A stretch of DNA of 32,000 nucleotides from Cupriavidus necator (GTDB lineage: Bacteria > Pseudomonadota > Gammaproteobacteria > Burkholderiales > Burkholderiaceae): positions 120,001-152,000 of the forward strand of contig NZ_CP066019.1 in NCBI RefSeq assembly GCF_016127575.1. Direction: 5' to 3'. The first letter of the stretch is position 1, and each line of letters starts with the position of its first letter. Below the pieces are notes generated by a model. It was not told the origin of the DNA and searched no databases. It saw only the letters and a list, made by a program, of their open reading frames with translations. Both the position numbers and the translations under genes were made by a program. Below are positions 2,540 to 21,265 of the stretch, in pieces.

Positions 2540-4077
2540 GTGCCGAACAGCTGCGCGTAGTCCTCGCGCAGCTGGCGCTTGAGCAGCTTGCCCGCCGTGT
2601 TGCGCGGCAGGTCCGCGACGAACACGATGCGCTTGGGCACCTTGAACGGTGCCAGTGCCTGGCGCGCATGGGCGATCAGCTCTTCCTCGGCGGCGTCTTC
2701 ATGGCCGCGCTTGCGCACCACGCAGGCGGCCACTGCCTCGACCCACTTCGGGTGCGGCAGTGCGAACACCGCTGCCTCGGCCACCGCGCCGTGAGTGTAC
2801 AGACACTCTTCCACCTCGCGGCTCGATACCAGCACGCCGCCTGAATTGATCACGTCCTTGATCCGGTCCACCACGTACAGGTAGCCCTCGGCATCCATAT
2901 AGCCGAGATCGCCGGAATGGAACCAGCCGCCGGTGAAGGCTTCAGCGGTCAGTTCGGGCTTGTCCCAGTACTCCGTCAGCAGTTGCGGCGAGCGATGCAC
3001 GATCTCGCCCAGCTCGCCGGGCGGCACGTCCTGCATGGTCTCGTCGACGATACGGGTCTCGACGTTCAGTACCGGCCGGCCGGCGGAGGCGGGGCGCCCG
3101 GCGTGTTCGTCGGGGCCCAGCACCGTGGCCAGCGGCCCGATCTCGCTCTGGCCGTAGCAGTTGTAGAAACGCAGTGCCGGCAGCTTCTGCTGCAGCTCAA
3201 GCAGCACCGGCACCGGCATGATCGAGGCCCCGTAGTAGGCCTTGGTCAGCGACCCCAGCCGCGCCGGATCGAAGTCCGCATGGCGCAGCAGCGCGATCCA
3301 CACCGTGGGCGGCGCAAAGAAGCTGGTGATGCCCTCGGCGTGGATGGTGCGCAGGCAATAGCCGGCCTCGGGGCTGTCGGCGATCAGCGTGGTGCCGCCG
3401 CACAGCAGCAGCGGCATCAGGAAGACATGCATCTGCGCCGAGTGGTACAGGGGCAGCGCGGCCAGCGAGTAGTCCGATTCGCGGATATCGCAGGCGGCAA
3501 TGGTGCTGACGTATTCGGCCAGCAGCGCGCGATGGGTCAGCACGGCACCCTTGGGGGCCGAGGTGGTGCCCGAGGTGTACAGGATCTGCGCAGGCGTGGT
3601 GTCGGTGAGCGAATCGGACACCGGTGCCGCGGGGCCGCTGGCGGCGGCTGCCAGTACATCGCGCACCTTGCCGCCGTGCAGCGTGCCGCTGACCTTGCAG
3701 GGCAGGCCCTCGACGCGGTCGGCCAGCGCCGGATCGGCAAAGATTGCGCTGGCGCCCGACTGCGTGACGATGTACTCGGCCTCCGCGCGCGTCATCGAGA
3801 AATTGACCGGCACATGGATCAGGCCGCTGCGCAGGCAGGCCAGCCACAGCAGCACATAGGCGTCTGAGTTCTTGCCGAAGGCGGCCACGCGGTCGCCGGG
3901 GCGCAGGCCCCATTGCGCCAGCGCGCCGGCCACGCGGGCCGCGGCCTGATCCAGTTGGCGATAGGTCCAGGCCCGTTCGCCGAAGCGGATCGCGGTCTTG
4001 CCCGGGCTGCGCCGCACGGCGCGGGCAATGGCGTCGGGAATGGTGTTGCGCAGGGCGCGCTGCTGCTCTGACTGCAT
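2536..4077 (-). CDS. AMP-dependent acyl-CoA synthetase/ligase (FadD-like)
   Basis: Start at ATG 4077 (MQSEQQRAL...) with a GGAGA RBS. AMP-binding motif YTSGTTSAPKG, plus GELGEIVHRSP, WFHSGDLGYMDAEGYLYVVDRIKD and a C-terminal PRNTAGKLLKR. Confidence 0.9.
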   Translation of the reverse strand: MQSEQQRALRNTIPDAIARAVRRSPGKTAIRFGERAWTYRQLDQAAARVAGALAQWGLRPGDRVAAFGKNSDAYVLLWLACLRSGLIHVPVNFSMTRAEAEYIVTQSGASAIFADPALADRVEGLPCKVSGTLHGGKVRDVLAAAASGPAAPVSDSLTDTTPAQILYTSGTTSAPKGAVLTHRALLAEYVSTIAACDIRESDYSLAALPLYHSAQMHVFLMPLLLCGGTTLIADSPEAGYCLRTIHAEGITSFFAPPTVWIALLRHADFDPARLGSLTKAYYGASIMPVPVLLELQQKLPALRFYNCYGQSEIGPLATVLGPDEHAGRPASAGRPVLNVETRIVDETMQDVPPGELGEIVHRSPQLLTEYWDKPELTAEAFTGGWFHSGDLGYMDAEGYLYVVDRIKDVINSGGVLVSSREVEECLYTHGAVAEAAVFALPHPKWVEAVAACVVRKRGHEDAAEEELIAHARQALAPFKVPKRIVFVADLPRNTAGKLLKRQLREDYAQLFGT

Positions 4078-4172: not shown

Positions 4173-4212
4173 TCGGGGTGGGACTACAGCGCGTCGGGGT
4201 GGACTACAGCGC
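4173..4212. repeat. 20-nt direct tandem duplication spanning the hydrolase stop codon
   Basis: tcggggtgggactacagcgc (4173-4192), then g, then tcggggtggactacagcgc (4194-4212). The second copy holds the real stop (cta at 4204-4206 on the + strand) and the last codons. Confidence 0.8.
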
Positions 4213-4914
4213 TTCCGACAGGAACACCAGCGCGCGTCCGTGGGCCAGCGCGGCGCTGGGCTGGTGGTAGGAGCCGCGCGCCCAGCAGTTGAAGCCGTGG
4301 TCCGCACCCTGGTAGACGTAGATCTCGCTGCCGGGTTTGCCGGCCATGGCGTCGCGCACGCCTTGCACGGCCTCTGGCGGGATGTGCGCGTCGAGCGCGC
4401 CGTAGTGGAACTGCACCGGCACACGAATGTTCGCCGCCTCTTGCAGCTGGTTCTGGATGCCGCCGCCGTAGTAGGGCACGGCCGCATCCACCAGCCCGCG
4501 CGCCGCGCTCAGGTACGACAGCAGGCCGCCGAAGCAATAGCCCACCGCCGCCACCTTGCCGGCGCCGGTGTGCTGGCGCAGCACCTGCACCGTGGCGGCG
4601 ATATCGTCCAGCGCGGCGGTGACATCCACCGCCTTGCGCAGCGCCATGCCGCGCGCCATGTCGTCGCCTTCGTAGCCCAGTTGCACGCGTGGCGCCTGGC
4701 GCCAGAACACGTCCGGCGCCAGCACCGCATAGCCGTCGGCGGCGTACTGGTCCGCCACGGCGCGGATATGCTCGTTGACGCCGAAGATCTCCTGCAGCAG
4801 CACAATGCCCGGCGCGCCGGGCTGCACGCCTGCCGGCGGCAGGCTCAGGTAGGCATCGAAGCTGCCCGCGGCGGTGTCAACGCGGATCCACTGGCTGTCG
4901 GGGATGGCTGTCAT
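4204..4914 (-). CDS. dienelactone hydrolase family protein
   Basis: Start at ATG 4914 (MTAIPDSQW...). Motifs GIVLLQEIFGVN, nucleophile VGYCFGG, catalytic-His region YQGADHGF. Confidence 0.9.
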   Translation of the reverse strand: MTAIPDSQWIRVDTAAGSFDAYLSLPPAGVQPGAPGIVLLQEIFGVNEHIRAVADQYAADGYAVLAPDVFWRQAPRVQLGYEGDDMARGMALRKAVDVTAALDDIAATVQVLRQHTGAGKVAAVGYCFGGLLSYLSAARGLVDAAVPYYGGGIQNQLQEAANIRVPVQFHYGALDAHIPPEAVQGVRDAMAGKPGSEIYVYQGADHGFNCWARGSYHQPSAALAHGRALVFLSEAL

Positions 4915-5007
4915 GGGGAAAGGCTCTCCGGAGGGGGCTGAACAGGAAAGCTGCAAGTTTGCCACTGCGCGCCGCTTCGTGCAGGGCAGGGCGCCCTGCT
5001 GCTGCCG

Positions 5008-5766
5008 TCAGTACGCGCGCGACTGCTGGTAGCGCTTGTTCCAGTTGTCGGTGTAGGCCCTGACCACGGCGGCGTCGCCGCGGATCAGCATGCCGTTCTC
5101 GGCGTTGCGCTCCTGCGCCGACTTGGTGAAGTTGAACGATCCGGTGAAGACTGCCTGGTCGTCGAACACCATCACCTTGTTGTGCGCAATCGCGGGTTTG
5201 TTGTCGATCACCACCGGCACGCCGGCATGCTTGAGGTAGGTGGCACTGGTATAGCGCTCGGACTGCTGGCTCTTGTCCAGGATCACGCGCACGTCCACGC
5301 CGCGCCGGTGCGCCTGTGCCACGGCCTCGGCAATCGGTGCGCTGGTGAACGAATAGGCCTGGATCAGCAGGCGATGGCGCGTGCTCCGGATGGCATTGAT
5401 CAGCAGCGCCTGGCAACTCGCGCCATCGGGCACGAAGCACAGCGTGTAGCCGCTGCCATCGGCAAACGGCTTGGCCGGCACCGGCTTCGCATCCGGCGGC
5501 TGGGCCGGCTTGCCGGTGCGCGCGGGAAAGTGGTTGGCGACGGCCTCGTTGAAGGTCTCGCTGATGCTGTTGGCGATGGTGTCGGTCACCTGGTCGAAGG
5601 TGGAAGCCGAGCGGGCGTGCGCCAGTAGCGCGAAGGGACTGAACGAGGTGAAGGCCGACACGGCGGCGGCCAGGCCCAGGCCCAGCACGGCCCGGCGAAT
5701 GAATCTGTAAGTCACGGCGGATCTTTGCGTCGGTGAATGACGGCATGCGCGCGCCGCGCGCCGCAT
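5008..5766 (-). CDS. phospholipase D family protein (single-HKD, Nuc-like), secreted
   Basis: HKD motif IAHNKVMVFDD followed by GSFNFTKSAQERNAENG. Signal-like N-terminus RFIRRAVLGLGLAAAVSAFTSFSPFALLAHA. The start is uncertain: ATG 5766, ATG 5814 or GTG 5715. Confidence 0.8.
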   Translation of the reverse strand: MRRAARACRHSPTQRSAVTYRFIRRAVLGLGLAAAVSAFTSFSPFALLAHARSASTFDQVTDTIANSISETFNEAVANHFPARTGKPAQPPDAKPVPAKPFADGSGYTLCFVPDGASCQALLINAIRSTRHRLLIQAYSFTSAPIAEAVAQAHRRGVDVRVILDKSQQSERYTSATYLKHAGVPVVIDNKPAIAHNKVMVFDDQAVFTGSFNFTKSAQERNAENGMLIRGDAAVVRAYTDNWNKRYQQSRAY

Positions 5767-5949
5767 GCTGTCGGGGCGGGTTCGCAGCGTAGCAGCCGCA
5801 TACGCCACTGGCAAAGCGTGATTGTGTAACAGGATCTGCGGCCGGCTATCCGGTGCAGCATCGCTGCACCGCCGCTGCCCTTGGGACTATCCGCACCCGC
5901 GCCTATGATGGATGGAACCCCCGCGGGTCCGCCCGCCAAGGAGAGGGAT

Positions 5950-6156
5950 ATGAGCAACCATACCTACAAGCTGGTCGAGATCGTCGGATCTTCACCCGAT
6001 GGCTGCGACCAGGCCATCCAGAGCGCCATTGCCAAGGCCGGTGAAACCATCAAGAACATCGACTGGTTCGAAGTGGTGGAAACGCGCGGCCACATCACGA
6101 ACGGCAAGATCGCGCACTACCAGGTCACGCTGAAGATCGGTTTCCGCGTGAGCTGA
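5950..6156 (+). CDS. dodecin family flavin-binding protein
   Basis: 68 aa starting at ATG 5950 after an AAGGAGAGG RBS. YKLVEIVGSSPDGCDQAIQSAIAKAGETIKNIDWFEVVETRGHITNGKIAHYQVTLKIGFRV matches the dodecin fold pattern. Confidence 0.85.
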   Translation: MSNHTYKLVEIVGSSPDGCDQAIQSAIAKAGETIKNIDWFEVVETRGHITNGKIAHYQVTLKIGFRVS

Positions 6157-6333: not shown

Positions 6334-8001
6334 TCAATCGAACTGGTACGAATAAGTCATGTTGATCCGCGGCGACCGACGGCTTGCATTGGTCGGCTTG
6401 TCACCTACCGGTTGTGCCACCGACAGATCCAGCGTGTAGTAGCGCCGGTCCGAGAAGCGCGCGCCAATGGCTACCGATGACAGGCTGCGGTGCGACAGCG
6501 ACACGCTGTTGGAAAACACGCGCGCCACGTCGGCCGACACATAGGGCTGGATGGTGCGCAGGTAGGTCATGTCGGGCAGGAACAGGCGGCTGATTTCCGC
6601 CGAGGCCCCCCAGCCCTTGTCGCCCGCCACTTCGCCGGCGGGATAGCCCAGCCCGAAGAAGCGTCCGCCGAAGCTGATCTGCTCGCCCGAGGCCAGGCGG
6701 TCGCCGCTGTACTGGCCCGCCGCGGCCACGGTGAGGCCGAAGCCCGCCGGCAGGTCTTTCGACTGCGACAGCAGCAGCCGCGTGCGGAAGAAGCTCAGGT
6801 CGTTGGTGTTGTTCTGGCGGCTCGCACCCAGCGCATCGAAACCCTTGTACAGGCCGAGCGTGGCGTTGCGGCTCACGCCTTCGCCGCGCTGAACGTAGGT
6901 CAGCTCCGCGGTGCCCACGCGCACGTTGGTGCCCAGCGTCACGCGCGTGCCGGTGGCGGTGTGGGTGTACCGCTCGAACTGGTCGGCGCCGTAGAAGCCG
7001 CCGGTCAGCGTGAGCGTATGCGCGTTGGACAGCAGCAGCGGATAGCTGAGCGAGCCGCCGATGCGCTTGGTGTCGTTGACGTAGCGCGGGTTGAACCCGA
7101 TCGCCTCCAGCGTGGCGTTCTGCGGCACGCCTCGGTAGTGCGAGGCATTGAGCCGCGCGATCATGCCCTCGGTGCCGAGCGGCTGCGCGTAGCTGGCGGC
7201 GTAGTACTCCTCGTTGTCGCGGCCCTTGGGGAACAGTGCCGAGACCGAGATCTGCTCGCCCAGCGGCGTCAGACTGTTGGTGGTCGCGGTGGCAATGGCG
7301 CGCAGGCCTGGCGACATGTATTCAATGCCGGTGCCGAAGGTGAACGGCTTGCGCTTGACGTCGAGCACCATCTCGCAGGCGCCGTCGGTGGTGGTCGGCG
7401 GCTGCACCGTGGCCGCCACCTGCAGCCCGGGCTGCAGGGCCAGTGCATTGACGTAGTGTTCGAAGCGGTCCTGGCGCAGCGGGCGGTCCTGCTGCAGCTT
7501 CTCGGCAATGGCGCGCAGCCGGCCCTCTGCCGGGCCCGCCTTGCCTGTGACCGTCACCTTGGCCACATAGCCTTCGACCACGGTGATCAGCACATCGCCG
7601 TTGGCAAAGTCCTGCGCCGGCACGAAGGCAAACGAGAGCGGATAGCCGCGGTCCTTGTACATCTGCGTCACCGTGTTGGCCGCTTCCAGCAGCTGCGCCA
7701 CCGTGATCTCGCGATTGGCCAGCGGCTTGAACTGCGCGGCTACCTCCTCGAACGGCAGCGTCTTCGCGCCTTCGATGCGAAAGCGGCGCGGTGTCAGGCG
7801 TGTATTGAGCAGGTCCTGCATGGCCGCCTGCGGCCGTTCGACCTGCACGGTCACGCTGCTGTCGGGCCGGGCCGGAGCAATCTTCGGGAGCGTCTGGGTT
7901 GGGTCGCCCTGGACCGGGCTGCGCGGATCGGCCTGGACCAGGCCGTGATGGAACGCGCCGACGCTGACCAGCAGCGCGGCAACGCGATGACGTGCACGCA
8001 T
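6334..8001 (-). CDS. ShlB/FhaC/HecB family outer-membrane transporter (TpsB, type Vb)
   Basis: 555 aa with a signal-like N-terminus. POTRA pattern FRIEGAKTLPFEEVAAQF...QMYKDRGYPLSFAFVPAQDFANGDVLITVVEGYVAKVTVTG. Barrel loop-6-like FGGRFFGLGYPAGEVAGDKGWGASAEISR. The C-terminus is a beta-strand ending YSYQFD. Confidence 0.9.
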   Translation of the reverse strand: MRARHRVAALLVSVGAFHHGLVQADPRSPVQGDPTQTLPKIAPARPDSSVTVQVERPQAAMQDLLNTRLTPRRFRIEGAKTLPFEEVAAQFKPLANREITVAQLLEAANTVTQMYKDRGYPLSFAFVPAQDFANGDVLITVVEGYVAKVTVTGKAGPAEGRLRAIAEKLQQDRPLRQDRFEHYVNALALQPGLQVAATVQPPTTTDGACEMVLDVKRKPFTFGTGIEYMSPGLRAIATATTNSLTPLGEQISVSALFPKGRDNEEYYAASYAQPLGTEGMIARLNASHYRGVPQNATLEAIGFNPRYVNDTKRIGGSLSYPLLLSNAHTLTLTGGFYGADQFERYTHTATGTRVTLGTNVRVGTAELTYVQRGEGVSRNATLGLYKGFDALGASRQNNTNDLSFFRTRLLLSQSKDLPAGFGLTVAAAGQYSGDRLASGEQISFGGRFFGLGYPAGEVAGDKGWGASAEISRLFLPDMTYLRTIQPYVSADVARVFSNSVSLSHRSLSSVAIGARFSDRRYYTLDLSVAQPVGDKPTNASRRSPRINMTYSYQFD

Positions 8002-8137
8002 GGCAAAACCCCTGTAAGGAAATACTGCGGCTATTGACGTCGCGTGCCACTGGCGCGGGAATTGCCGCTACCCCCGTGCGCCTGCCGTCCGATGCTGCCG
8101 GTTCAGCGCTTGGCCGCTACGTTGAATCTGGTGTGCT

Positions 8138-8173
8138 CCGCTGCCCGCGATCAGGCGATCGCCAGGGCAGCGG
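8138..8173 (-). other. intercistronic GC-rich stem-loop between the lipoprotein gene and the TpsB gene
   Basis: ccgctgccc gcgatc agg c gatcgc ca gggcagcgg. Outer 9-bp and inner 6-bp stems lie 12 nt after the lipoprotein stop. No T-tract. Confidence 0.5.
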
Positions 8174-8184
8174 CTGAGGCTGGA

Positions 8185-9597
8185 TTACTTCTGGCCGAGC
8201 GCGCCGGTCAGGCCGCCCAGCAGGCCGCCAACCAGGCCGCCGATGGGGCCGGTGGCGCTGGTGGTCGAAGTCTTGCTGGTGGTGCTGCCCGCGGTGGAGG
8301 TGGCGCCGCCGGTCACGGCGGCGACAACATTGGTGACGGGGGCCAGCGGGCTGGTGGTGCCAGTGCCCGCCGCGGCGCCGGTGACGCCGCCGACCACGCC
8401 ATTCACCACGCCGCTGACCGCGGTGGTGACCGGCGCCAGCGGCGAACCGGTGCTGCCGCCGGTGGCACTGCCAAGGCCGCCGGTGATGCTGCTGACCAGG
8501 CTGGTGACAGGCGCCAGCGGCGAACCCGTACCGCCAGCGCCTGCACCGCCAGTCAGCCCCCCGGCCAGCGCAGTCACGGGTGCCAGTACCGGGCTCAGCG
8601 CGCCCAGGCCGCCGCCGCTGGCGGGCCCGTTCACTGCGCCGCCCAGCGAAGCCACGGTCGTGCCGGTGGCGTTCACCACGCCGCCGACGCCCGAGACTAC
8701 CGGCGTGTTGGTCTGTTGCAGCGTGGTGCCGGCCGTCGCGAGCGCACCGCCCACGGCCGCCAGCAGGCTGGTGGTCGGTGCGCCCAGGCCCGTGGCCGCG
8801 CCGAGCGTCTGTGCGGCGCCGGTCAGCTGCGAGGTGATCGGCACGATCAGCTTGCTGGTGGTGGTGGTCACCTGCTCGACCGCGCCGGTCGACAGCACCG
8901 TGGTCAGCGTTTCGCCAGTGCCGCTCACCGTTTTGCCCAACTCGTTCACCACCGTGCCCAGCGGCGAGGTCAGCGGCGCCAGTGGCGCGAGCTGGCCGGT
9001 GCCAAGGCCACTGACGGCGGTACCGGTGCTGGATAAGGTCTTGCCAAGTTCGGTGACCACGTTGCCGGTGCTGGCTACCGTGGTGCCTACCGGATTATCC
9101 GAGTTCGGCATGCTGCCCAGGCCCGATTGCAGGCCCGTGGCCAGTGCCCCGATGGCATCGCCGGCGGAGGCTACGGCGTCGCCCAGGCCGGTTTGTGTCT
9201 GGGTCGGCACCAGCGGCAGGTTGCTGCTGCCGAGCTTGTCGCCAAGATCGCTGACCGTCTTGCCGGTACTGTCGAGCACCTTGCCAGTATTGTTGATGAC
9301 CTCGGCGGTCGGGGTCCGTGCGGTGGGCGTTTCGCCGCCGCCGGTATTGCCGCCATTGTTATCGCCAGTGCCACCCGTGCCGCCGCCCGTGCCACCGGTA
9401 CCGCCGCCGGCCACGTCGGTGCTGCCGCCGGAGCCACCCATGCCGCCGGTGCCATCGGTACCCGTGGTCTTGGTGCCGCCATTGGTGCCCGCCGTGTCGC
9501 TGGTGCCCATGGAGGTCGATCCGCTGCCGCTGGCGCAGCCACCCAGGGCCAGCAAGGTTGCGAGGAGTGCCGTTACGGCGAGTTGTTGTTTGCGCAT
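8185..9597 (-). CDS. Gly/Thr/Val-rich heptad-repeat lipoprotein (paralogue 1), unknown family
   Basis: Start at ATG 9597 (MRKQQLAVTALLATLLALGG|CASG, lipobox) with a GAGGGAA RBS. It has a Gly/Thr linker and 7-residue periodicity (TGKVLDS/TGKTVSD/LGDKLGS; TGNVVTE/LGKTLSS/TGTAVSG). Four C-terminal SPLAPVT repeats lie at 8332-8595. It is colinear with the ORF at 10328-11437. Confidence 0.8.
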   Translation of the reverse strand: MRKQQLAVTALLATLLALGGCASGSGSTSMGTSDTAGTNGGTKTTGTDGTGGMGGSGGSTDVAGGGTGGTGGGTGGTGDNNGGNTGGGETPTARTPTAEVINNTGKVLDSTGKTVSDLGDKLGSSNLPLVPTQTQTGLGDAVASAGDAIGALATGLQSGLGSMPNSDNPVGTTVASTGNVVTELGKTLSSTGTAVSGLGTGQLAPLAPLTSPLGTVVNELGKTVSGTGETLTTVLSTGAVEQVTTTTSKLIVPITSQLTGAAQTLGAATGLGAPTTSLLAAVGGALATAGTTLQQTNTPVVSGVGGVVNATGTTVASLGGAVNGPASGGGLGALSPVLAPVTALAGGLTGGAGAGGTGSPLAPVTSLVSSITGGLGSATGGSTGSPLAPVTTAVSGVVNGVVGGVTGAAAGTGTTSPLAPVTNVVAAVTGGATSTAGSTTSKTSTTSATGPIGGLVGGLLGGLTGALGQK

Positions 9598-9680
9598 GTT
9601 CTGTTCCCTCATTCCCGTCGTTTAAATCGCTCGGCCGCGCATCGCGTTCGTTTTCTGCGTGCGGCGGTGACGGATATGGC

Positions 9681-9695
9681 GCAATCGGTATGCCA
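9681..9695 (-). promoter_or_regulatory. candidate sigma-54 (-24/-12) promoter for lipoprotein 1 / TpsB operon
   Basis: The minus strand reads gcgcTGGCATaccgaTTGCgcc. The GG-N10-GC spacing is exact. It lies about 85-100 nt upstream of ATG 9597. Confidence 0.6.
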
Positions 9696-9749
9696 GCGCT
9701 GCGACGCGTCCTGGAGCGGACCCTGCGGAAGTCGGGGGTGGTGCCCGCA

Positions 9750-9770
9750 AAGCCTTGCCGGGCGCGGATT
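9750..9770 (-). promoter_or_regulatory. conserved 21-bp promoter-proximal element, copy A
   Basis: The minus strand reads aatccgcgcccggcaaggctt, 20/21 identical to 10074-10094 on the + strand. It is 60 nt from the 23-bp element and 54 nt from the -24 box. Confidence 0.5.
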
Positions 9771-9830
9771 CCAGGGAAGCGGTGGGACCTGCTCGCGGCG
9801 CTGCCGGGGATGGGGTGTCAGGGCGGCTGC

Positions 9831-9853
9831 GCGTTACGCGTTACGTAACGTGT
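9831..9853 (-). promoter_or_regulatory. 23-bp UAS-like element, copy A (contains palindrome CGTTACGTAACG)
   Basis: The minus strand reads ACACGTTACGTAACGCGTAACGC, 20/23 identical to copy B. It lies about 135-160 nt upstream of the minus-strand -24 box. Confidence 0.5.
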
Positions 9854-9990
9854 GTCGTCTGCAGGGAACAAGACAGCCGGAACGGCGGGCTTGCGACGAT
9901 GGCGATCCAGCCAGGCAAGCGCGCCGTGCCGCGCACTGCCACGGCCTCCCGCCACGGTCATCCGCGCCTCCGTGTTCCCATGTTCCCGGA

Positions 9991-10013
9991 ACACGTTACG
10001 TAGCACGTAACAC
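9991..10013 (+). promoter_or_regulatory. 23-bp UAS-like element, copy B (GTTACGT-AGC-ACGTAAC inverted repeat)
   Basis: ACACGTTACGTAGCACGTAACAC, about 125-145 nt upstream of the plus-strand -24 box. It overlaps the stem-loop cgtgttcc(9971-9978)/ggaacacg(9988-9995). Confidence 0.5.
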
Positions 10014-10073
10014 CTCAGGTCCGCGCCGCAACGGCATTTGTGTCCGGCCCGCAGCTACCCCGCATCACCCGGC

Positions 10074-10094
10074 AATCCGCGCCAGGCAAGGCTT
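10074..10094 (+). promoter_or_regulatory. conserved 21-bp promoter-proximal element, copy B
   Basis: aatccgcgccaggcaaggctt. It is 60 nt downstream of UAS copy B and 42 nt upstream of TGGCAC. Confidence 0.5.
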
Positions 10095-10136
10095 GCAGCG
10101 CCGCGGCCGGTTCCGTGCCGGCACCGCTGGCGCCGC

Positions 10137-10151
10137 TGGCACGCGCCTTGC
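10137..10151 (+). promoter_or_regulatory. candidate sigma-54 (-24/-12) promoter for lipoprotein 2
   Basis: ccgcTGGCACgcgccTTGCcatt is a near-perfect match to TGGCACG-N4-TTGC. It lies about 177 nt upstream of ATG 10328. Confidence 0.65.
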
Positions 10152-10327
10152 CATTGGTTGTCCAGACGCGCCGACGATCTCGCGTTCCACGGTCTTGCCG
10201 TTCCGCTTCGGAGCGGTCCGCCAGAGGAACAAAGCGGGACACCGGGGAGGCTCGTCGGCAATCCCATGCGGCGCACATAAGACAAGACGGCCGGCAGCAC
10301 CGTGGCCAACAAGACAGGAGAAGGGCA

Positions 10328-11437
10328 ATGAAAATCAAGCATCCGTCGCAGCATGGCATGACCTCACTGGCCGCGGCCGGCGTGGCCGCCCTTGCGTTGC
10401 TGATGGCAGGCTGTTCGTCCAGCGGTGGCGGCAGCGGCGCCAATCCGCGGCCGAACAGCGGCAACACCGACACGCCGGTCAACCCGGCACCGTCCGCATC
10501 GAGCGAGACCACGCCCACGGCCAAGGTGACCGAAGGCGCGGGCAATACCGTGGTGGCCACTGGCAATGCCATCAGTGACATCGGCAAGACTATCCAGGAG
10601 GCGCCGCTGCCGTTGCTGCCCACCACGGCGCGCGAAAGCGCCGGCGACGTGGTGATCAAGGCCGGCAAGGCGGTTGGCTCGCTCGGTGCCGGCGTGCGCG
10701 ATGGGCTGGGGCAGATGGGCTCGGTCGACAACCCGGTTGGCGTGACGGTGGCCAGCACCGGCAACGTGGTCCACGACGTGGGCGAGGCGTTGATCAGCGG
10801 CGGCGACCTGGTGTCTGGCCTGGGCACCGAGAAGCTGGCACCGCTGGCACCGGTGACCACCCCGGTGGGTGGCCTGGTCAGGCACGTGGGCATCGCGGTG
10901 CACGATGGCAGCTACAAGCTGAAAAGCGTGCTGTCCGAAGGCCCGGTCGCGCAGGTCACGAATTCGGTCAGCAAAGTCATCGTGCCGCTGACCAGCAAGG
11001 GCACCGACGGCACGCAGACACTGGGAGCGGCCACGCACCTGGGCGAGCCGGCCAACGGCCTGCTCTACAAGGTCGGCAATACGGTGGCTGCAGGCGGCAG
11101 CATGATCAGCAACACCCACGCACCGGTGGTCTCGCCGCTGGGCGGCGTGGTGACTGAGGCCGGCAAGACGGTCGCGGCCGCTGGCGCGCTCCTCAACGGC
11201 AATGGTCAGGGTGGCGGCAACCCGCTTGGTGGCCTGCTGGGCAACCTGCCGCTGGCCAAGGCTGGTAGCAACGGTGAGGGCGGTTCCGCGGGCGGCGCGC
11301 TCGGTCCCGTGACCGCGCTGCTGGCGCCGGTGACCGGACTGGTCGGCGGGCTGAAGCAAGGCGCACACGACAGCCAGGGTGGCAGCGGTGACCACAAGGC
11401 GTTGCAGCTGCCGCTGGTGGGTGGCCTGCTGCGCTGA
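10328..11437 (+). CDS. Gly/Thr/Val-rich heptad-repeat lipoprotein (paralogue 2), unknown family
   Basis: ATG 10328 after an AGGAGA RBS. Lipobox ALALLMAG|CSSS. Shares colinear blocks with paralogue 1: DNPVG.TVASTGNVV, LAPLAP.T, K.IVP.TS, QTLGAAT, PVVS..GGVV. Confidence 0.8.
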   Translation: MKIKHPSQHGMTSLAAAGVAALALLMAGCSSSGGGSGANPRPNSGNTDTPVNPAPSASSETTPTAKVTEGAGNTVVATGNAISDIGKTIQEAPLPLLPTTARESAGDVVIKAGKAVGSLGAGVRDGLGQMGSVDNPVGVTVASTGNVVHDVGEALISGGDLVSGLGTEKLAPLAPVTTPVGGLVRHVGIAVHDGSYKLKSVLSEGPVAQVTNSVSKVIVPLTSKGTDGTQTLGAATHLGEPANGLLYKVGNTVAAGGSMISNTHAPVVSPLGGVVTEAGKTVAAAGALLNGNGQGGGNPLGGLLGNLPLAKAGSNGEGGSAGGALGPVTALLAPVTGLVGGLKQGAHDSQGGSGDHKALQLPLVGGLLR

Positions 11438-11514: not shown

Positions 11515-11546
11515 CTGGCATTGCGGCCGTATGACCGCAATGCCAG
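11515..11546. promoter_or_regulatory. perfect 12-bp-arm palindrome upstream of flp (candidate operator)
   Basis: CTGGCATTGCGG-ccgtatga-CCGCAATGCCAG. It lies about 260-290 nt upstream of the flp ATG and has no T-tract 3' on either strand. Confidence 0.45.
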
Positions 11547-11807
11547 GTTGCAGGCCGGTTCCCGGCCGGTCTGCCTGCTCTTTGACAACCTGTGGACCCG
11601 GGCGTGCCGGGTCGTTTCAAACGCGCGTCTTAACCCCTTTGGGTCATTGCTATCACCCGTAGGAGGGGTATGGTTGAGACATTCCATGTCTTAAAAAGAA
11701 AGCGCAGCAAGCGTGAAAAGTCGATAAAATAGCGGGCCACAGAGCACCGTGATAATCGAACGGGGGAAGCGTGATCGCGGCAACAGATCACTTCGGGAGT
11801 GGAAATC

Positions 11808-11984
11808 ATGAAACGACTCATTGCACGCTTTATTAAGGATGAGCGCGGAGCGACGGCTATCGAATATGGCCTGATCGTCGGGCTTGTTGCTCTGGCGATT
11901 GCCGTCGGCGCTGGCAAACTCGGCACCGAGCTTAACGCCAGCTTCGATCGGCTTTCGGTCACGGTTTCGGGATGGTTCAAGTAA
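11808..11984 (+). CDS. flp: Flp family type IVb pilin
   Basis: ATG 11808 after a GGGAG RBS. MKRLIARFIKDERG/ATAIEYGLIVGLVALAI is the canonical Flp prepilin leader, G/A cleavage site and EY motif. 58 aa. Confidence 0.9.
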   Translation: MKRLIARFIKDERGATAIEYGLIVGLVALAIAVGAGKLGTELNASFDRLSVTVSGWFK

Positions 11985-12005: not shown

Positions 12006-12482
12006 GTGATTGCCGCGCTCCTCTGCGCGGCGACCCTCTACACAGACTTCCTCCACCGGCGCGTTCCCAACGCCTTGCTGGCGGCTGCCGTGCTGGCCCT
12101 CGGGCTGTCACTGCTCGCCGGACAGGGCATGGAACTGCCGCTAACCACGCGCCTGATCGGCGCCGGGCTGGGCCTTGCGGTCACACTGCCGGTATATGCC
12201 CTCGGGCAGATGGCGGCGGGTGACGTCAAGTTCCTGGTCGTGGCGGGGTTGTTCACCGGGCCGCAAGGACTGGTACTGGCATGGGTCGTCGGCAACCTGC
12301 TCGGGCTGGTGCACGCGCTGCTGGCGCTTGCACTGGGCGGTCGCGCGCCGGCTACAAGTCAAGCCATCGATCACCAGGACAGCGGACCTATTCCTACGGC
12401 GCAGTTTTCGCGGGCGCGCGGCATTCCATATGCCGCGTACCTGGCCGTGGGCGTGCTGGCCTGGATGGCTGCGGGCCATTAG
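12006..12482 (+). CDS. tadV: A24 family prepilin peptidase (CpaA/TadV)
   Basis: GTG start. Polytopic membrane protein with the two catalytic-Asp contexts YTDFLHRRVPN and AAGDVKFLVVAG. Lies immediately after flp. Confidence 0.8.
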   Translation: MIAALLCAATLYTDFLHRRVPNALLAAAVLALGLSLLAGQGMELPLTTRLIGAGLGLAVTLPVYALGQMAAGDVKFLVVAGLFTGPQGLVLAWVVGNLLGLVHALLALALGGRAPATSQAIDHQDSGPIPTAQFSRARGIPYAAYLAVGVLAWMAAGH

Positions 12483-12554
12483 CCGGACAGGCTAGTGGCA
12501 AGCAGGCTGCGCCGCCGGTCGGCGCGAAAGAACACCAAGGGACCGGGGTTTCAG

Positions 12555-13031
12555 ATGTTGTTGCACGCAAGGGTCAACAGGGGGATAAACCGGCGCCGCC
12601 ACGGCGCCGGCAGCGCTGCGATCGAGTTTGCGATCGTGGCGCCGGTGCTGCTCGCCATCGTGATCGGCATCGTCTACTACGGTGTGATGCTGGCGCTGCA
12701 ACAGGTGCTGACGCTGGCCGCCGAAGAAGGCGCGCGCGCTGCGCTGCGCTATCCAGCGGGCGTTTCCGGCTCAGGCCTCGCGGCCACGCAAGGCGCGCGC
12801 GTCGATGCAGCGGCTGCGATGGCGCGCGGCACGCTTCCCACATCCATCAGGAATTTGCTGTCCACCGGCAACGTTGCGCAGGCAGTGCCCTGTGCATCCG
12901 GCTCCACCGATGTCTGCGTGCAGGTTACGCTGAACCTTCCCACCACCAACATCCTCCCCGCCGTGCCGATGGTCCCGGTCCCTGCAACGCTGTCAGGCTC
13001 GGCAATGGTCCAGCTTTCTCCTGATATCTGA
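12555..13031 (+). CDS. tadE: TadE-like pseudopilin
   Basis: ATG 12555. TadE N-terminal motif GSAAIEFAIVAPVLLAIVIGIVYYG. The upstream in-frame extension in the ORF track is Arg-rich and unlikely to be translated. Confidence 0.8.
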   Translation: MLLHARVNRGINRRRHGAGSAAIEFAIVAPVLLAIVIGIVYYGVMLALQQVLTLAAEEGARAALRYPAGVSGSGLAATQGARVDAAAAMARGTLPTSIRNLLSTGNVAQAVPCASGSTDVCVQVTLNLPTTNILPAVPMVPVPATLSGSAMVQLSPDI

Positions 13032-13081
13032 GCCGCCATGCCCCAACGCCCCCACGCCATGCCCATCCAAAGGAATCCCGC

Positions 13082-14035
13082 ATGACCAGCAAGCAGATCC
13101 GACTTCTGGCGGTGGTGCTGCTTGGCCTGGCGCTGCTGCTTGCGCTGCTGGCGTGGCAAGTGGGCCGCCAGCCGGCACAGGCGCCCGCGGCATCGACATC
13201 CGCCAAACCGCTGCACGCAGTGGTGGTGACCACGCAAGCGGTGGAGGCGGGCAAGCCGCTTGCCGCCGAGGCGCTCAAGGTCGAGATGCTCCCGATCGAT
13301 CCCACCGGCGCCTACAGCGAGGTGGCACGCGTGACCGGGCAGGTGCCGCTGGTGGCGCTTGGCGCCAACGTGCCGGTGCTCGAAAGCCAGTTGCTGGCTG
13401 GCCTGGCCACGCAGGTGCGGGAGGGCGAACGCGCGGTGGCCGTGTCAGTCGATGAAGTCATCGGCGTCGGCAACCAGGTGCAGCCGGGCGACTATGTCGA
13501 TGTCTTCCTGGTGCTGCGCCGCGACCAGCAGGAGATCCCGGAAAGCCAGGCGCGCATGCTGCTGTCGCGCCTGCGCGTGCTGGCCTACGGCGTCGCCTCG
13601 GTCAACCGGCCGCAGAACGCCAAGCCGGAACAGATGATGGCGCGACAGGAGGGCGCCAAGACCGCGGTGCTGTCGGTGCCGCTGGAGCAGGTCAGCCGGC
13701 TGGCGATGGCGCAGCAGTCCGGGCGCCTGCTGCTGGCGCTGCGCAATCCGCAGGACGAAGCCATGCCCAGCGACGGCATGTTTGCCGAACCCCCGCCCGC
13801 GCTGGCCGCGCGCGCCGGCGTTCCCGCCGAAGCGCCGCGCGCGGCCCCCGACAAGGCCATGGCCGGCGTGATGCTGTCCGGCCTGGCCGCCCCCGCCGGC
13901 GCCTCTGCCCCGCGCGCGCCGGTGGCAGCGCCGGCGCCGCGGCCGCTGCAGGTTGCCGCGCCGCCCGCGCCAGCCCAGGCGAGACAAAGCGCAGGCGTGG
14001 AAGTCATTCGCGCGGGCAAGCGCGAGATCGAATAA
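13082..14035 (+). CDS. cpaB: Flp pilus assembly protein CpaB/RcpC
   Basis: N-terminal TM segment and SAF-like domain (VVVTTQAVEAGKPL...), then the RcpC part (ERAVAVSVDEVIGVGNQVQPGDYVDVFLV). Ala/Pro-rich C-terminal tail. Confidence 0.9.
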   Translation: MTSKQIRLLAVVLLGLALLLALLAWQVGRQPAQAPAASTSAKPLHAVVVTTQAVEAGKPLAAEALKVEMLPIDPTGAYSEVARVTGQVPLVALGANVPVLESQLLAGLATQVREGERAVAVSVDEVIGVGNQVQPGDYVDVFLVLRRDQQEIPESQARMLLSRLRVLAYGVASVNRPQNAKPEQMMARQEGAKTAVLSVPLEQVSRLAMAQQSGRLLLALRNPQDEAMPSDGMFAEPPPALAARAGVPAEAPRAAPDKAMAGVMLSGLAAPAGASAPRAPVAAPAPRPLQVAAPPAPAQARQSAGVEVIRAGKREIE

Positions 14036-14054
14036 GAACGTGGGCGCCGACTTT

Positions 14055-15467
14055 ATGCATATCCAGAAGAAACCAGCCCATTCGACGGCCCTGCGCCGCA
14101 GGCTGATGCAACTCGCGCTGGCCGCGATGCTGGCCACTACCGCGTGGTGCGCACTGGCGCCGCGCGCACAGGCGCAGGAAGCCGTGAACGCGCGCCAGTT
14201 GCGCCTGCTGGCCGGCGCGCAGAAAGAGATCCGCAGCGCGCAACCGGTGGAACGCGTCGCGGTGGGCAACCCGGCGGTGGCCGACGCGCTGGTGCTGCGC
14301 ACGCGCGGTGCCCCCAGCGTGCTGCTGGTGGCCAAGCAACCTGGCGTGACCGACGTGATGGTGTGGACGCGCGGCGGCGCCGAGCCGCTGACCTACAACG
14401 TGCAGGTCGATGCCATCGCGCCCGATGCCGATGGCGCCAAGCTTGGCTATTCCGCCGCCGGTGCCACCATCACCGGGCAGTCGCCCGATGCCTATGCCGC
14501 GGCGCGCGCGCAGGCAGCGGCGCGCGCGGCCACCACCGGCAAGACCGATGGCAAGCCCGGCCTGGTGGTGGATCGCTCTACCGTGCCGCTCTCCGGTACC
14601 GTGCAGGTCGACGTCAAGGTGGTGGAGATCAGCAAGACCGTGCTCAAGGAAGTCGGTATCAACTTCTTCCGCAACAACTCCGGCTTTGCCTTCGGCACGT
14701 TCTCGCCATCGACGCTGAACAAGTTCACCTTTACGCCCGGCAGCGGCGGCGCACCGGGCAGTTTCAGTGCCGACATCGCGTCGCCGATGAGCAATGCCTT
14801 CAACCTGGTGGCCGCGTCGCTGACACACGGTATCTTCGCCAATATCAGCCTGCTGGAGGCCAACGGCCTGGCGCGCGTGCTGGCCGAGCCCAGCCTGGTG
14901 GCGCTGTCCGGCCAGAGTGCCAGCTTCCTGGCCGGCGGCGAGATCCCGATCCCGGTGCCGCAGGCGCTGGGCACGACCACGATCCAGTTCAAGCCATTCG
15001 GCATCGGGCTGACGGTGTCGCCCACGGTGCTGTCGGCCGACCGCATCGCGCTGAAGGTGGCGCCGGAGGCGAGCGACCTCGACCCCTCGCGCGGCATCTC
15101 GATCAATGGCGCGGTGGTGCCCGCCATCGTCACGCGGCGCGCCGACACCACGGTGGAACTGGGTGACGGCGAGAGCTTCGTGATCGGCGGGCTGGTCAGC
15201 CGCAACACCGTCAGCAACGTCAACAAGGTCCCGGTGCTGGGCGACCTGCCGGTGATCGGTGCCTTCTTCAAGAACCTGAATTTCCACCAGGAAGACCGTG
15301 AGCTGATGATCGTGGTCACGCCGCGCCTGGTGAAGCCGCTGGCCAAGGGCGCGCCGGCGGCGCAAGCCGTTGGTGCCGATGGCCGCACCAACGGCAACCC
15401 CAATGTATGGGGCTGGTATGTGCTGGGCGAATACGCGGACCCGACTTTGCCGGGTTTCTCAAAATAG
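14055..15467 (+). CDS. cpaC: type II/III secretion system secretin family protein CpaC/RcpA
   Basis: ATG 14055 (MHIQKKPAH..., signal peptide ending AQAQE). BON-like N-domain (VAVGNPAVADALVL...). Secretin core LLEANGLARVLAEPSLVALSGQSASFLAGGEIPIP...VPVLGDLPVIGAFFK. Confidence 0.9.
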   Translation: MHIQKKPAHSTALRRRLMQLALAAMLATTAWCALAPRAQAQEAVNARQLRLLAGAQKEIRSAQPVERVAVGNPAVADALVLRTRGAPSVLLVAKQPGVTDVMVWTRGGAEPLTYNVQVDAIAPDADGAKLGYSAAGATITGQSPDAYAAARAQAAARAATTGKTDGKPGLVVDRSTVPLSGTVQVDVKVVEISKTVLKEVGINFFRNNSGFAFGTFSPSTLNKFTFTPGSGGAPGSFSADIASPMSNAFNLVAASLTHGIFANISLLEANGLARVLAEPSLVALSGQSASFLAGGEIPIPVPQALGTTTIQFKPFGIGLTVSPTVLSADRIALKVAPEASDLDPSRGISINGAVVPAIVTRRADTTVELGDGESFVIGGLVSRNTVSNVNKVPVLGDLPVIGAFFKNLNFHQEDRELMIVVTPRLVKPLAKGAPAAQAVGADGRTNGNPNVWGWYVLGEYADPTLPGFSK

Positions 15468-15513
15468 CCGCCGGCCGTGCCGGCAGGCATGGCCAACAGC
15501 TTGAGGCGGAGAG

Positions 15514-16755
15514 ATGGATTATTTTCTGTTGCACGCAACGCAGGACGAAGTGAAGGACTGGCTGGGCAAGGTCCTGGGCGGGCTGGGCACGCTGGTGGCC
15601 GAAGGCGGCGCGCAGGAAGCCTTTCTCGAGCGCGTGGCCCAGCTGCGCCCGGGGCTGGTGTTCCTGCACTTCTCGACGGAACTGGCCGGCGCGTCGGCGC
15701 GGCTGGGCGAGCAGCTGCTGCGGCTCTTCCCGGGCCTGCCGCTGGTCGCGGTGGGCCATGCCGACGAGCCCGGCATCATGCTGGCGGCGCTGCGCGTGGG
15801 CGTGAAGGACTTTATCGACCTGCGCGACGCGCCGGCCGATGCCGAGGCCGTGGTCAAGCGCCTGGCCGTGCCGGGCGAGCAGGTGCGCCAGGCCGAGTCG
15901 GCGCGCCAGGGCAAGATCGTGGCGCTGCTGGGCGCGCGCCCCGGCGTGGGCGTGACCAGCCTGGCCGTGAACCTGGCCGCGGCGGCACGCCGCCACCTGC
16001 CACTGAATGAAAAGACTGACGCGCGCGCCGAAGTGCTGCTGCTGGACCTGGGCCTGCCGGCGCGCGACGGCGCGCTGTACCTGAACCTGAGTCCGGGCTT
16101 CCACTTTGTCGAGGCGGTGCGCAACCTGCGCCGCTTCGACCAGGTCTTCGTGCAGACCGCGCTGACACGCCACGGCAACGGCGTATGCGTGCTGCCGCTG
16201 CCCGCGGCGCTGGGCGAGCTGCGCGACATCTCTTACTCCGAAGCCATCAGCCTGCTGGAGCGGCTGCGCGCGTTCTTCGACATGCAGATCATCGACCTGG
16301 GCGGCTTCGGCAATGCCGAGTTCACCGCGCAGATCGTCAAGGCCGCCGACAGCGTGGTGCTGGTGGCCGACCAGAGCGTGGGCGCGATCGTTTCGGCCGC
16401 GGAGCTGGTGCATGAGCTGCGCGCGCGCGAGGTGGAGCGCGACGACCTGCACCTGCTGGTGTCGCGCTTCGATGCGCGCCTGGGCGTGGATGCCGCGCAG
16501 ATCGCGCACCGCGTGGGTGTGCAGTCGGTGGGCACGCTGCCCGACAGCCGCGCACCGCTGGTGCTGGCCATGAACCGCGGCGCGGTGCTGGCCGACGACG
16601 ATCCGCACGACCCCTATGTGCGCGCCCTGGCCGACCTGCTGGCACGACTGGGCTACCGCGCGGCGCAGGCCAGGGAAACCAGCCTGCTGGCGCGGATGAA
16701 GGACAAACTGCCTGAGGCGCTGCGCGCGGTGCGCGTGGCACGCACTGGAACCTGA
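15514..16755 (+). CDS. tadZ: TadZ/CpaE: atypical receiver domain plus MinD/ParA-like ATPase domain
   Basis: The position before tadA fits TadZ. Receiver-like N-terminus (LVFLHFS...PLVAVGH...GVKDFI). Deviant Walker A KIVALLGARPGVGVTSLAVNLA (15931-15960). Confidence 0.85.
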   Translation: MDYFLLHATQDEVKDWLGKVLGGLGTLVAEGGAQEAFLERVAQLRPGLVFLHFSTELAGASARLGEQLLRLFPGLPLVAVGHADEPGIMLAALRVGVKDFIDLRDAPADAEAVVKRLAVPGEQVRQAESARQGKIVALLGARPGVGVTSLAVNLAAAARRHLPLNEKTDARAEVLLLDLGLPARDGALYLNLSPGFHFVEAVRNLRRFDQVFVQTALTRHGNGVCVLPLPAALGELRDISYSEAISLLERLRAFFDMQIIDLGGFGNAEFTAQIVKAADSVVLVADQSVGAIVSAAELVHELRAREVERDDLHLLVSRFDARLGVDAAQIAHRVGVQSVGTLPDSRAPLVLAMNRGAVLADDDPHDPYVRALADLLARLGYRAAQARETSLLARMKDKLPEALRAVRVARTGT

Positions 16756-16756
16756 C

Positions 16757-18992: not shown

Positions 18993-19023
18993 GCGGCATG
19001 CCAGCACGCAGACAAGAGCCAAC

Positions 19024-20921: not shown

Positions 20922-21265
20922 CCGCCATGTTCCGCATTGCCATCCCCGCGCTCTGCCTGCTGATGCTGGCGCCCGCCGCGCAGGCGCAGACCGACCGTGC
21001 CACGACCGAGGCCGCTGCCACCGGCATGCCGGCAGGCAGCCCGGCGCAACGCGAGATCGGTGCCGACACGCGCGCCATCCTTGCCATCCAGCGCGAAGGC
21101 ACGCAGGCTGGCCCCATGCTGCCGATGCACGGCGAGCAGGCCGCGCTGGGCTATGAGCGCTACCTGAACAGCTTCCGCTTCGCGCTGCCGGAGTTCTACA
21201 CGGGGCAGGCCAACGCCAGCACCGCGCGCGCCGGCTCCGCCGGCCAGATGCTGGGCGGCAAATGA
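20918..21265 (+). CDS. small secreted Tad-associated protein (DUF3613-like)
   Basis: ATGA overlap with tadD. 115 aa with signal peptide MTAMFRIAIPALCLLMLAPAAQA/Q. The segment TRAILAIQREGTQAG...GEQAALGYERYLNSF resembles proteins seen at this position in Burkholderiales tad loci (family name recalled from memory). Confidence 0.65.
   Translation: MTAMFRIAIPALCLLMLAPAAQAQTDRATTEAAATGMPAGSPAQREIGADTRAILAIQREGTQAGPMLPMHGEQAALGYERYLNSFRFALPEFYTGQANASTARAGSAGQMLGGK

Follow-up and report, generated by a model that had tools for sequence, protein, structure and literature searches.

This study concerns a 32,000-nt stretch of the Cupriavidus necator genome (contig NZ_CP066019.1, positions 120,001–152,000; hereafter, the window) and, within it, a gene for an outer-membrane transporter of the TpsB type, the transporter class of two-partner secretion (TPS; type Vb secretion), together with two lipoprotein genes located next to it. 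An earlier note on this DNA had described three open reading frames (ORFs) here, and all of them were found at the coordinates it gave:

6334–8001, minus strand: TpsB-type transporter of the Omp85 superfamily, 555 aa (identified by Pfam, AlphaFold 2, Foldseek and profile alignment)
8185–9597, minus strand: lipoprotein B, 470 aa, lipobox LALGG|C (identified by PF15984, alignment and periodicity)
10328–11437, plus strand: lipoprotein C, 369 aa, lipobox LLMAG|C (identified by PF15984 and AlphaFold 2)

An identical TpsB protein with the same neighbours is encoded on chromosome 2 of C. necator H16 (AM260480.1). The region is a conserved cassette of the order Burkholderiales, in which one or two lipoproteins of the Collagen_mid family (Pfam PF15984) are combined with a TpsB gene and sigma-54 promoters, and which is usually attached to a Tad pilus locus.

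The transporter had been proposed to possess a POTRA domain and a ShlB-type barrel, and the Pfam search agreed with this, both matches being above the gathering cut-offs: POTRA_2 (PF08479) at aa 70–144 (66.9 bits, E = 1.4e-18) and ShlB (PF03865) at aa 259–516 (59.8 bits versus a cut-off of 22.7, E = 4.1e-16). A weak POTRA match was also present and no other Pfam families were found in the protein; an NCBIfam search of all three proteins gave nothing informative. PF03865 or PF08479 was detected in 120 of the 120 TpsB homologues listed. The model built with AlphaFold 2 (AF2) on 35 orthologues, with a mean predicted local distance difference test score (pLDDT) of 80.6, contains a large β-barrel of the 16-strand type, preceded by two POTRA-like units. 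The second of these units (β-α-α-β-β-like, approximately aa 145–217) directly precedes the barrel. The protein starts with a signal peptide, and an N-terminal QGDP/GNPxDxLPK motif is conserved. In the region of the plug helix H1, only a 4-residue helix was predicted (aa 34–37, pLDDT ~73), lying within GNPxDxLPK, and the rest of aa 1–60 was modelled with low confidence. Foldseek analysis of the model revealed CdiB as the best PDB match (6wim, E = 1.8e-27, TM-score 0.65/0.67), and FhaC (4ql0, E = 1.3e-26, and 4qky) was also among the top matches; CdiB and FhaC outranked BamA and TamA. The sequence profile matched the POTRA structure of TpsB4 (2mhj, E = 6e-13) and, at E ~1e-10, FhaC and CdiB, with which the identity in structural alignments was 14–18%. 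By Pfam and by fold, the window transporter is a true TpsB, though a divergent one.

Lipoproteins B and C are paralogous (42–49% identity), and the lipoboxes assigned to them are borne out by the sequence. Their repeat family, which the earlier note had not recognised, is a known one, namely Pfam PF15984 (Collagen_mid, "Bacterial collagen, middle region"). It was matched by lipoprotein B with E = 1.1e-72 (244.4 bits) and by lipoprotein C with E = 1.6e-77 (260.2 bits; cut-off 31.1), in both cases over the full profile (1–198 of 198). In lipoprotein B, a Gly/Thr-rich linker of about 75 aa is followed by Collagen_mid at aa 127–324, by four SPLAPVT..GG repeats, which had been noted before and are seen in the translation, and by the end LLGGLTGALGQK. 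Lipoprotein C contains a short Gly/Ser/Pro linker, Collagen_mid at aa 94–291, an LAPVT tail and the end LPLVGGLLR. Each protein has a single cysteine residue and almost no aromatic residues (none at all in B), and the flanks are disordered and rich in Gly, Thr and Ser, with only a few GGT triplets. Nearly all full-length PF15984 members show an aligned L-x-[GAS]-C lipobox, and the residues after its cysteine (A or S, not D) would fit sorting to the outer membrane by the established Lol rules. The heptad periodicity was found as described: hydrophobic residues recur with a period of 3.5 residues (z = 13.1 for B and 8.2 for C versus shuffled sequences), and the Gly autocorrelation at lag 7 was 0.17–0.25. 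Modelling of lipoprotein C using AF2 led to long antiparallel helices (pLDDT ~80 for aa 61–200) with disordered flanks, and the Collagen_mid core is predicted to be an α-helical heptad bundle, not a β-helix. A Foldseek search with the lipoprotein model gave no significant PDB match, the best being a de novo designed 6-helix barrel (E = 0.011). A true collagen-like protein was also considered; it was ruled out by the absence of a Pfam Collagen match together with the 3.5-residue heptad helical periodicity.

The PF15984-type family is small, comprising 299 clusters at E ≤ 1e-3 in an exhaustive search of representatives, and a profile search using the Collagen_mid domain alignment gave no extension beyond Burkholderiales-type sequences. 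The lipoprotein partners range from 330 to 710 aa, and the length of the lipid-proximal linker varies widely, reaching 83 GXX repeats in Burkholderia homologues (PMC10224339). Such a linker would be hard to fit in the periplasm, so it was counted as a trait resembling displayed cargo. The LAPVT motif recurs in the disordered regions (median 5.5 per family protein), and the C-terminus of the family is conserved as ...LAPVTxLxGGLLGG..K/R/H; speculatively, the repeats and the C-terminus could be recognition elements. The annotation of the family in public records is inconsistent: the precomputed Pfam field of lipoprotein B (locus L001, 8405–9817) is empty despite the PF15984 match at E = 1e-72, and C. 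necator records call its paralogue 'Hemagglutinin transmembrane protein'.

In order to examine the neighbourhood of the family, one genome per species (GTDB) was scanned with a 4-sequence Collagen_mid alignment, and 80 loci with 10-kb flanks were obtained from Cupriavidus, Ralstonia, Herminiimonas, Oxalicibacterium, Glaciimonas, Burkholderia, Caballeronia, Paraburkholderia, Trinickia and Pararobbsia. These loci are the best tblastn matches, so that orthologues of the Tad-linked copy are over-represented among them; the 4-sequence alignment also biases retrieval toward members with GT[GE]xL[AS][PA]LAP. A near-full-length TpsB orthologue (44–99% identity, tblastn) was located approximately 0.1–3 kb away in 76 of the 80 loci, and one of the four loci lacking it is a 2.5-kb contig. 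A gene with POTRA_2 and ShlB was also adjacent in six of the eight informative divergent relatives from metagenomes and metagenome-assembled genomes (P0013, P0020, P0018, P0031, P0032 and P0035), and in one divergent relative the lipoprotein and TpsB genes overlap by 4 nt. Most loci contain two Collagen_mid genes (Cmid) and one TpsB gene, and the following arrangements were found (arrows give the direction of reading):

Cupriavidus: TpsB<-Cmid, next to Cmid->
Ralstonia: Cmid<-, next to Cmid->TpsB
Burkholderia, Trinickia and Paraburkholderia: Cmid->Cmid->TpsB
Herminiimonas, Oxalicibacterium, Glaciimonas and Collimonas: Cmid->TpsB
metagenome contig L093: TpsB->Cmid

The pairing is kept through at least five gene orders or orientations and down to 26–37% protein identity, and these five rearranged layouts argue for it more strongly than the locus counts. 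The synteny between the lipoprotein family and ShlB-type genes, which the earlier note had left to be checked, is strongly conserved, and no TPS domain was found in either lipoprotein; both outcomes, either of which could have refuted it, uphold and strengthen its proposal that the TpsB is paired with lipidated, TPS-less proteins rather than with a TpsA exoprotein. Its description of the transporter as an orphan has to be withdrawn, since a fixed partner family, the lipoproteins, accompanies it in 76 of the 80 loci.

The absence of a TpsA partner was found to hold in the window and around the related genes. No TpsA-like ORF is present in the 32 kb, the longest ORF (1020 aa) being SbcC-like. 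The NPNL and NPNG motifs are absent from lipoproteins B and C, as had been stated, and no TPS domain (Haemagg_act/TPS, PF05860) was matched in either of them by Pfam at E ≤ 1. PF05860 was not found in any called gene of loci L001, L007, L091, L093 and L095–L098, no large frame with NPNG or NPNL occurred in 98 loci, and the ±10 kb examined around more than 85 loci contained neither a TpsA-like gene nor a giant ORF. A TpsA hidden nearby was thus ruled out by the ORF scan of the window and the NPNG/NPNL scan of the loci.

The transporters of this clade share a deviation in the L6 motif. The arginine of L6 VRGY/F is a hallmark of the Omp85 superfamily; it is joined by a salt bridge to the aspartate of F/GxDxG on β13, and FhaC requires it for activity (PMC5422565). 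L6 of the window TpsB (aa ~445–465) reads RFFGLGY, not VRGY, and in profile alignments the TVRGY of FhaC and the SVRGF of CdiB were aligned to FGLGY/FGLAY. Orthologues were extracted from loci L011–L098 and L007 (79 sequences, 76 with a readable motif); among the readable ones, [FY][GA]L[GA]Y was found in nearly all, one had FASGY, and GRGY occurred only in the Comamonadaceae copy (L007). An arginine or lysine three residues upstream of the motif is conserved in the clade, and the [AS]GDxG motif of β13, including the aspartate, is retained across it.

The promoter analysis was based on a strict sigma-54 -24/-12 element, TGGCAY-N5-TTGC. The divergent 730-bp intergenic region contains one strict site for each lipoprotein gene, and the following features related to transcription were identified:

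9681–9695, minus strand: sigma-54 -24/-12 promoter-like element TGGCATACCGATTGC, 84 nt upstream of the start codon of lipoprotein B
10137–10151, plus strand: sigma-54 -24/-12 promoter-like element TGGCACGCGCCTTGC, 177 nt upstream of the start codon of lipoprotein C
8138–8173, minus strand: stem-loop with no T-tract, 11 nt after the stop codon of lipoprotein B (sequence and fold)
11515–11574, plus strand: 12-bp perfect inverted repeat CTGGCATTGCGG-N8-CCGCAATGCCAG, then a terminator-like hairpin, between the stop codon of lipoprotein C and flp
22989–24353, plus strand: sigma-54 enhancer-binding protein, 454 aa, with Sigma54_activat and HTH_8 (E = 1.3e-61)

The element at 9681–9695 has a conserved counterpart at the corresponding position of Cupriavidus and Ralstonia loci. 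A strict site on the correct strand upstream of a Collagen_mid gene was present in 75 of the 80 loci. The 1.57 Mb contain 114 strict sites in all, 105 of them in that position, with about 6 expected in the whole sequence. The enhancer-binding protein, whose N-terminal ~135 aa have no Pfam match, closes the Tad locus, and sigma-54 activators flank two other Collagen_mid family members. It is a candidate regulator of both lipoprotein promoters, and shared sigma-54 control of the Tad and lipoprotein genes looks likely.

The 183-nt gap between the lipoprotein B and TpsB genes, with its stem-loop and without a T-tract, is present as the earlier note described it. The spacer as a whole was no more stable than shuffled sequences (fold z = −0.6), no sigma-54 or sigma-70-like site was found in it, and the scan for sigma-70 promoters and terminators gave results at chance level. 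In Burkholderia, a single sigma-54 site on one strand stands ahead of Cmid-Cmid-TpsB. Since no promoter-like element directly precedes the TpsB gene and the Burkholderia module has this one site, the lipoprotein B and TpsB genes are likely to be co-transcribed by read-through. In Cupriavidus sp. UYPR2.512 (L011, 93% identical), the spot corresponding to the 11515–11574 element carries TGGCATTGCGGTTGC (position 5544), a strict sigma-54 site upstream of flp, but the -12 part in H16 is CCGT, which suggests that the flp promoter may be of the sigma-54 type in relatives and altered in H16. An Rfam scan of 5.5–12.5 kb revealed only a sub-threshold mir-9195 match (9861–9949, minus strand; 27 bits versus a gathering value of 90.5), which is almost certainly a chance GC-rich hairpin.

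The Tad genes are located next to lipoprotein C:

11808–11984, plus strand: Flp pilin, 58 aa (PF04964)
12006–22950, plus strand: Tad assembly genes, namely cpaA/tadV, tadE, rcpC, the cpaC secretin gene, tadZ, the cpaF ATPase gene, tadB, tadC, two small ORFs and tadG

The earlier note had mentioned the Tad locus as lying directly beside the module. The locus is there, and it is more than an incidental neighbour, being conserved in 73 of the 80 loci; genes of the flp-cpaA-tadE-rcpC-cpaC type also adjoin the module in L091, L093, L095 and L096. The Cmid-TpsB pair of L007, L097 and L098 has no Tad genes around it on the available contig stretch; the lipoprotein–TpsB pair was therefore taken as the core, and the Tad locus as its frequent partner. 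A SbcD/SbcC-like nuclease pair (24844–29090) directly follows the Tad regulator and marks the right end of the island. Downstream of the TpsB gene, the genome contains genes for a secreted-looking PLDc_2 protein with an HKD motif (5008–5814, minus strand), a dodecin (5950–6156, plus strand) and a dienelactone hydrolase (4204–4965, minus strand). As these three genes are conserved only within Cupriavidus, they are not part of the module. In L097, a second Collagen_mid gene (2743–3768) separates thiG from a TMP-TENI (thiE-like) gene in a thiamine operon, approximately 3 kb upstream of the Cmid-TpsB pair, which is an odd place for an adhesin-like lipoprotein.

Orthologues of all three proteins are found in Burkholderia. 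PF15984 proteins found in the Burkholderia cepacia complex were covered by an in silico survey under the name Bcc-CLPs (PMC10224339); they belong to the same family and have the same lipoprotein architecture as the window proteins. The layout BCAL1524-BCAL1523-BCAL1522 next to the flp gene BCAL1525 is also the same, the modules being orthologous, and in B. cenocepacia (L063) the Cmid-Cmid-TpsB proteins of 557, 474 and 561 aa correspond in size to BCAL1524, BCAL1523 and BCAL1522. The Bcc-CLPs differ in their long GTS collagen-like repeats, (GTS)n in B. cenocepacia L063, which are absent from the window proteins. BCAL1524 is reported to be present in outer-membrane vesicles, and it favours autoaggregation and has a part in virulence in Galleria (PMC10303873); BCAL1520, BCAL1523 and BCAL1524 were co-induced with flp genes on contact with host membrane vesicles (PMC7970998). 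The genes had been annotated, and the lipoprotein family had been described, with BCAL1523 and BCAL1524 partly characterised. The in silico survey neither identifies bcal1522 as a TpsB gene nor proposes a transporter–cargo relation, sigma-54 control or order-wide Tad linkage (PMC10224339), and a literature search for a TpsB–lipoprotein link, a TpsB–Tad link or BCAL1522 gave nothing beyond that survey. New with respect to the literature searched are the pairing of TpsB and lipoprotein across the order, the consistent lack of a TpsA, the sigma-54 promoters, the linkage to Tad and the deviation in L6.

All these characteristics incline us, with slightly better than even confidence, to assume that the TpsB is a dedicated device for the translocation or display of the adjacent Collagen_mid lipoproteins, which would be lipid-tethered adhesins or aggregation factors co-expressed with Flp pili under sigma-54. 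The lipoproteins would be exported by Sec, lipidated at the lipobox cysteine and delivered to the outer membrane by Lol. There, the POTRA domains of the TpsB would capture the still-unfolded, cysteine-free polypeptide, perhaps at the repeated disordered LAPVT motifs or at the conserved C-terminus, and the polypeptide would cross the TpsB barrel so that the heptad helical bundle could fold outside the cell. The N-terminal Gly/Thr(Ser)-rich linker would stay threaded in the pore or serve as a stalk, giving a lipid-tethered surface adhesin, and the displayed lipoproteins could act with Flp pili in aggregation and adhesion.

A comparison with known systems shows where this proposal has precedents. 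The type Vb systems FhaC/FhaB, CdiB/CdiA and ShlB/ShlA have a transporter of the same family and fold (POTRA_2 and ShlB barrel) with an adjacent, cysteine-poor partner that presumably crosses the membrane unfolded, and one transporter may serve several partners. However, the partner of the clade described here is small (330–710 aa), predicted to be lipidated and α-helical, and devoid of a TPS domain and of NPNG/NPNL, and L6 in the window clade is [FY][GA]L[GA]Y instead of VRGY/F. The Slam (DUF560, type XI) proteins, known from Neisseria TbpB, fHbp and HpuA, are outer-membrane barrels that are encoded beside their lipoprotein clients and move Lol-delivered lipoproteins to the surface. By analogy, Slam comes closest in function to the export proposed here, but the window protein matches ShlB and POTRA_2, not DUF560, and has POTRA domains, whereas Slam has an N-terminal TPR region and a 14-strand DUF560 barrel. 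The clients also differ, being predicted helical bundles in the window and β-barrel/handle lipoproteins for Slam. In the BamA–RcsF complex (PDB 6t1w), an Omp85 barrel engages a lipoprotein whose disordered N-terminal linker can thread a barrel lumen while its lipid anchor stays in the membrane, and the long Gly/Thr linker could plausibly have a similar topology. BamA, however, is a general essential insertase with five POTRA domains, whereas the window Omp85 protein is a dedicated, non-essential-looking paralogue of the TpsB type, and the display of RcsF depends on the assembly of other outer-membrane proteins. The streptococcal Scl1/2 and the Bacillus BclA share with the family only the database name and, in the Burkholderia homologues, Gly-X-X repeats that are possibly a stalk. 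Unlike them, the window proteins have no Pfam Collagen match, show a 3.5-residue period with helical prediction and no triple helix, and have a predicted lipid anchor in a Gram-negative envelope.

A number of points weigh against display of the lipoproteins by the TpsB. The link of this TpsB clade to lipoprotein localisation comes from genomics, and all the loci belong to one order; common descent accounts for part of the conservation, and the counts are not independent events. The predicted cargo is helical and TPS-less, whereas the characterised TpsA cargos are all β-helices with a TPS domain, and the recognition mechanism would therefore have to be new. The helical prediction itself is of moderate confidence (shallow alignment, mean pLDDT of the lipoprotein model 59.7). 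Because the clade lacks the L6 arginine important for FhaC activity, its transport mode may differ, or the protein may not be a classical translocator. The presence of BCAL1524 in vesicles cannot tell the inner from the outer leaflet, and its aggregation phenotype could arise indirectly via Tad pili. In addition, both partners occur singly. Family members without an adjacent TpsB were found (L005, L009, L043, L085, L087, BCAL2397, BCAM0695 and BCAM1598), and such solo lipoproteins make up three of the five family members in B. cenocepacia. A solo TpsB orthologue (50% identity) is present in Pandoraea pulmonicola (L092, 10001–11788), with no Collagen_mid or Tad gene within 10 kb; its neighbours are a flavocytochrome c sulfide dehydrogenase gene on one side and sox genes on the other. 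Since some TpsB proteins have several TpsA partners or are promiscuous (PMC5422565), the solo lipoproteins fit one transporter serving several clients; the solo genes also leave room for independence.

A different role for the same partners was considered, in which the lipoproteins are periplasm-facing accessory subunits of the Omp85 machine and the client of the TpsB is a part of the Tad system, for example the CpaC secretin, or another protein. Omp85 proteins do work with lipoproteins, as BamB–E with BamA and BcpO in the Burkholderia bcp loci (PMC5422565), and the departure of L6 from classical translocators, the Tad genes adjoining the module in 73 of the 80 loci and the co-induction of the orthologues with flp genes (PMC7970998) are all in keeping with such a role. 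The autoaggregation defect of ΔBCAL1524 (PMC10303873) would be equally expected from a Tad pilus defect, and neither this phenotype nor the vesicle localisation discriminates between export and an accessory function. On the other hand, the Cmid-TpsB pair stands without Tad genes on the available contig stretch in L007, L097 and L098, and the Tad locus of relatives already has its own TPR pilotin-like protein. Additional paralogues that stand alone and carry very long repeat linkers (PMC10224339) resemble displayed proteins rather than stoichiometric subunits, and TpsB transporters, ahead of BamA and TamA, are the best structural matches. An accessory role, the main rival, is unlikely on this evidence, though it deserves to be taken seriously.

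It could also be supposed that the region is simply a sigma-54 adhesion island, held together by shared regulation and niche, with the lipoproteins brought by a general, TpsB-independent route to the inner leaflet of the outer membrane or to the surface, and the TpsB having an unrelated function in transport or as a pore. The coupling evidence is all genomic, no TPS-type signal is recognisable, and the solo Collagen_mid genes and the solo TpsB orthologue (PMC10224339) are readily understood in this way. However, shared regulation does not readily account for an adjacency that survives at least five rearrangements, identities of 26–37% and a 4-nt gene overlap, nor for the single sigma-54 site before the Burkholderia Cmid-Cmid-TpsB, a pattern typical of functionally dependent partners; we regard this explanation as decidedly doubtful. 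That the TpsB is an ordinary one with its TpsA elsewhere in the genome and only fortuitously adjacent to the lipoproteins is very improbable: only 32 kb of the genome are visible and promiscuous or multi-TpsA transporters exist (PMC5422565), but more than 85 loci are free of TpsA-like genes over ±10 kb, 76 of 80 retain the lipoprotein partner, and the clade, with an L6 motif of its own, has only a remote relationship to FhaC and CdiB (profile E ~1e-10, 14–18% identity).

The display of the lipoproteins by the TpsB can also be put in a broader form, which we hold tentatively and would sooner doubt than assert. In this form, the whole TpsB clade would have been repurposed for the display of α-helical, lipid-anchored adhesins, without a TPS domain or β-helix folding, with a modified L6 and with an LAPVT or C-terminal signal. 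It would be a parallel to Slam on a type Vb scaffold, wired by sigma-54 to Tad/Flp pili across Burkholderiales, including the pathogens of the B. cepacia complex.

Two-partner secretion is defined by the handshake between the TPS domain and POTRA and by β-helix cargo, and a TPS-less, lipidated, helical class of partners would be surprising to a specialist in type V secretion. If the proposal is true, a TpsB clade with helical lipoprotein partners widens the range of Omp85/TpsB cargo and provides a second, unrelated route for surface lipoproteins of Gram-negative bacteria alongside Slam; the hypothesis is testable in tractable organisms. The names in current use, "collagen-like triple helix repeat protein", "hemagglutinin transmembrane protein" and "heme utilization-related protein", mislead for all three genes. 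In B. cenocepacia, BCAL1523 and BCAL1524 are induced on contact with host membranes, and BCAL1524, which has been linked to aggregation and virulence, is a candidate for a vaccine. Recognition of BCAL1522 as the probable exporter, and of RpoN together with the Tad-linked activator as the probable control, would give direct experimental handles on these proteins.

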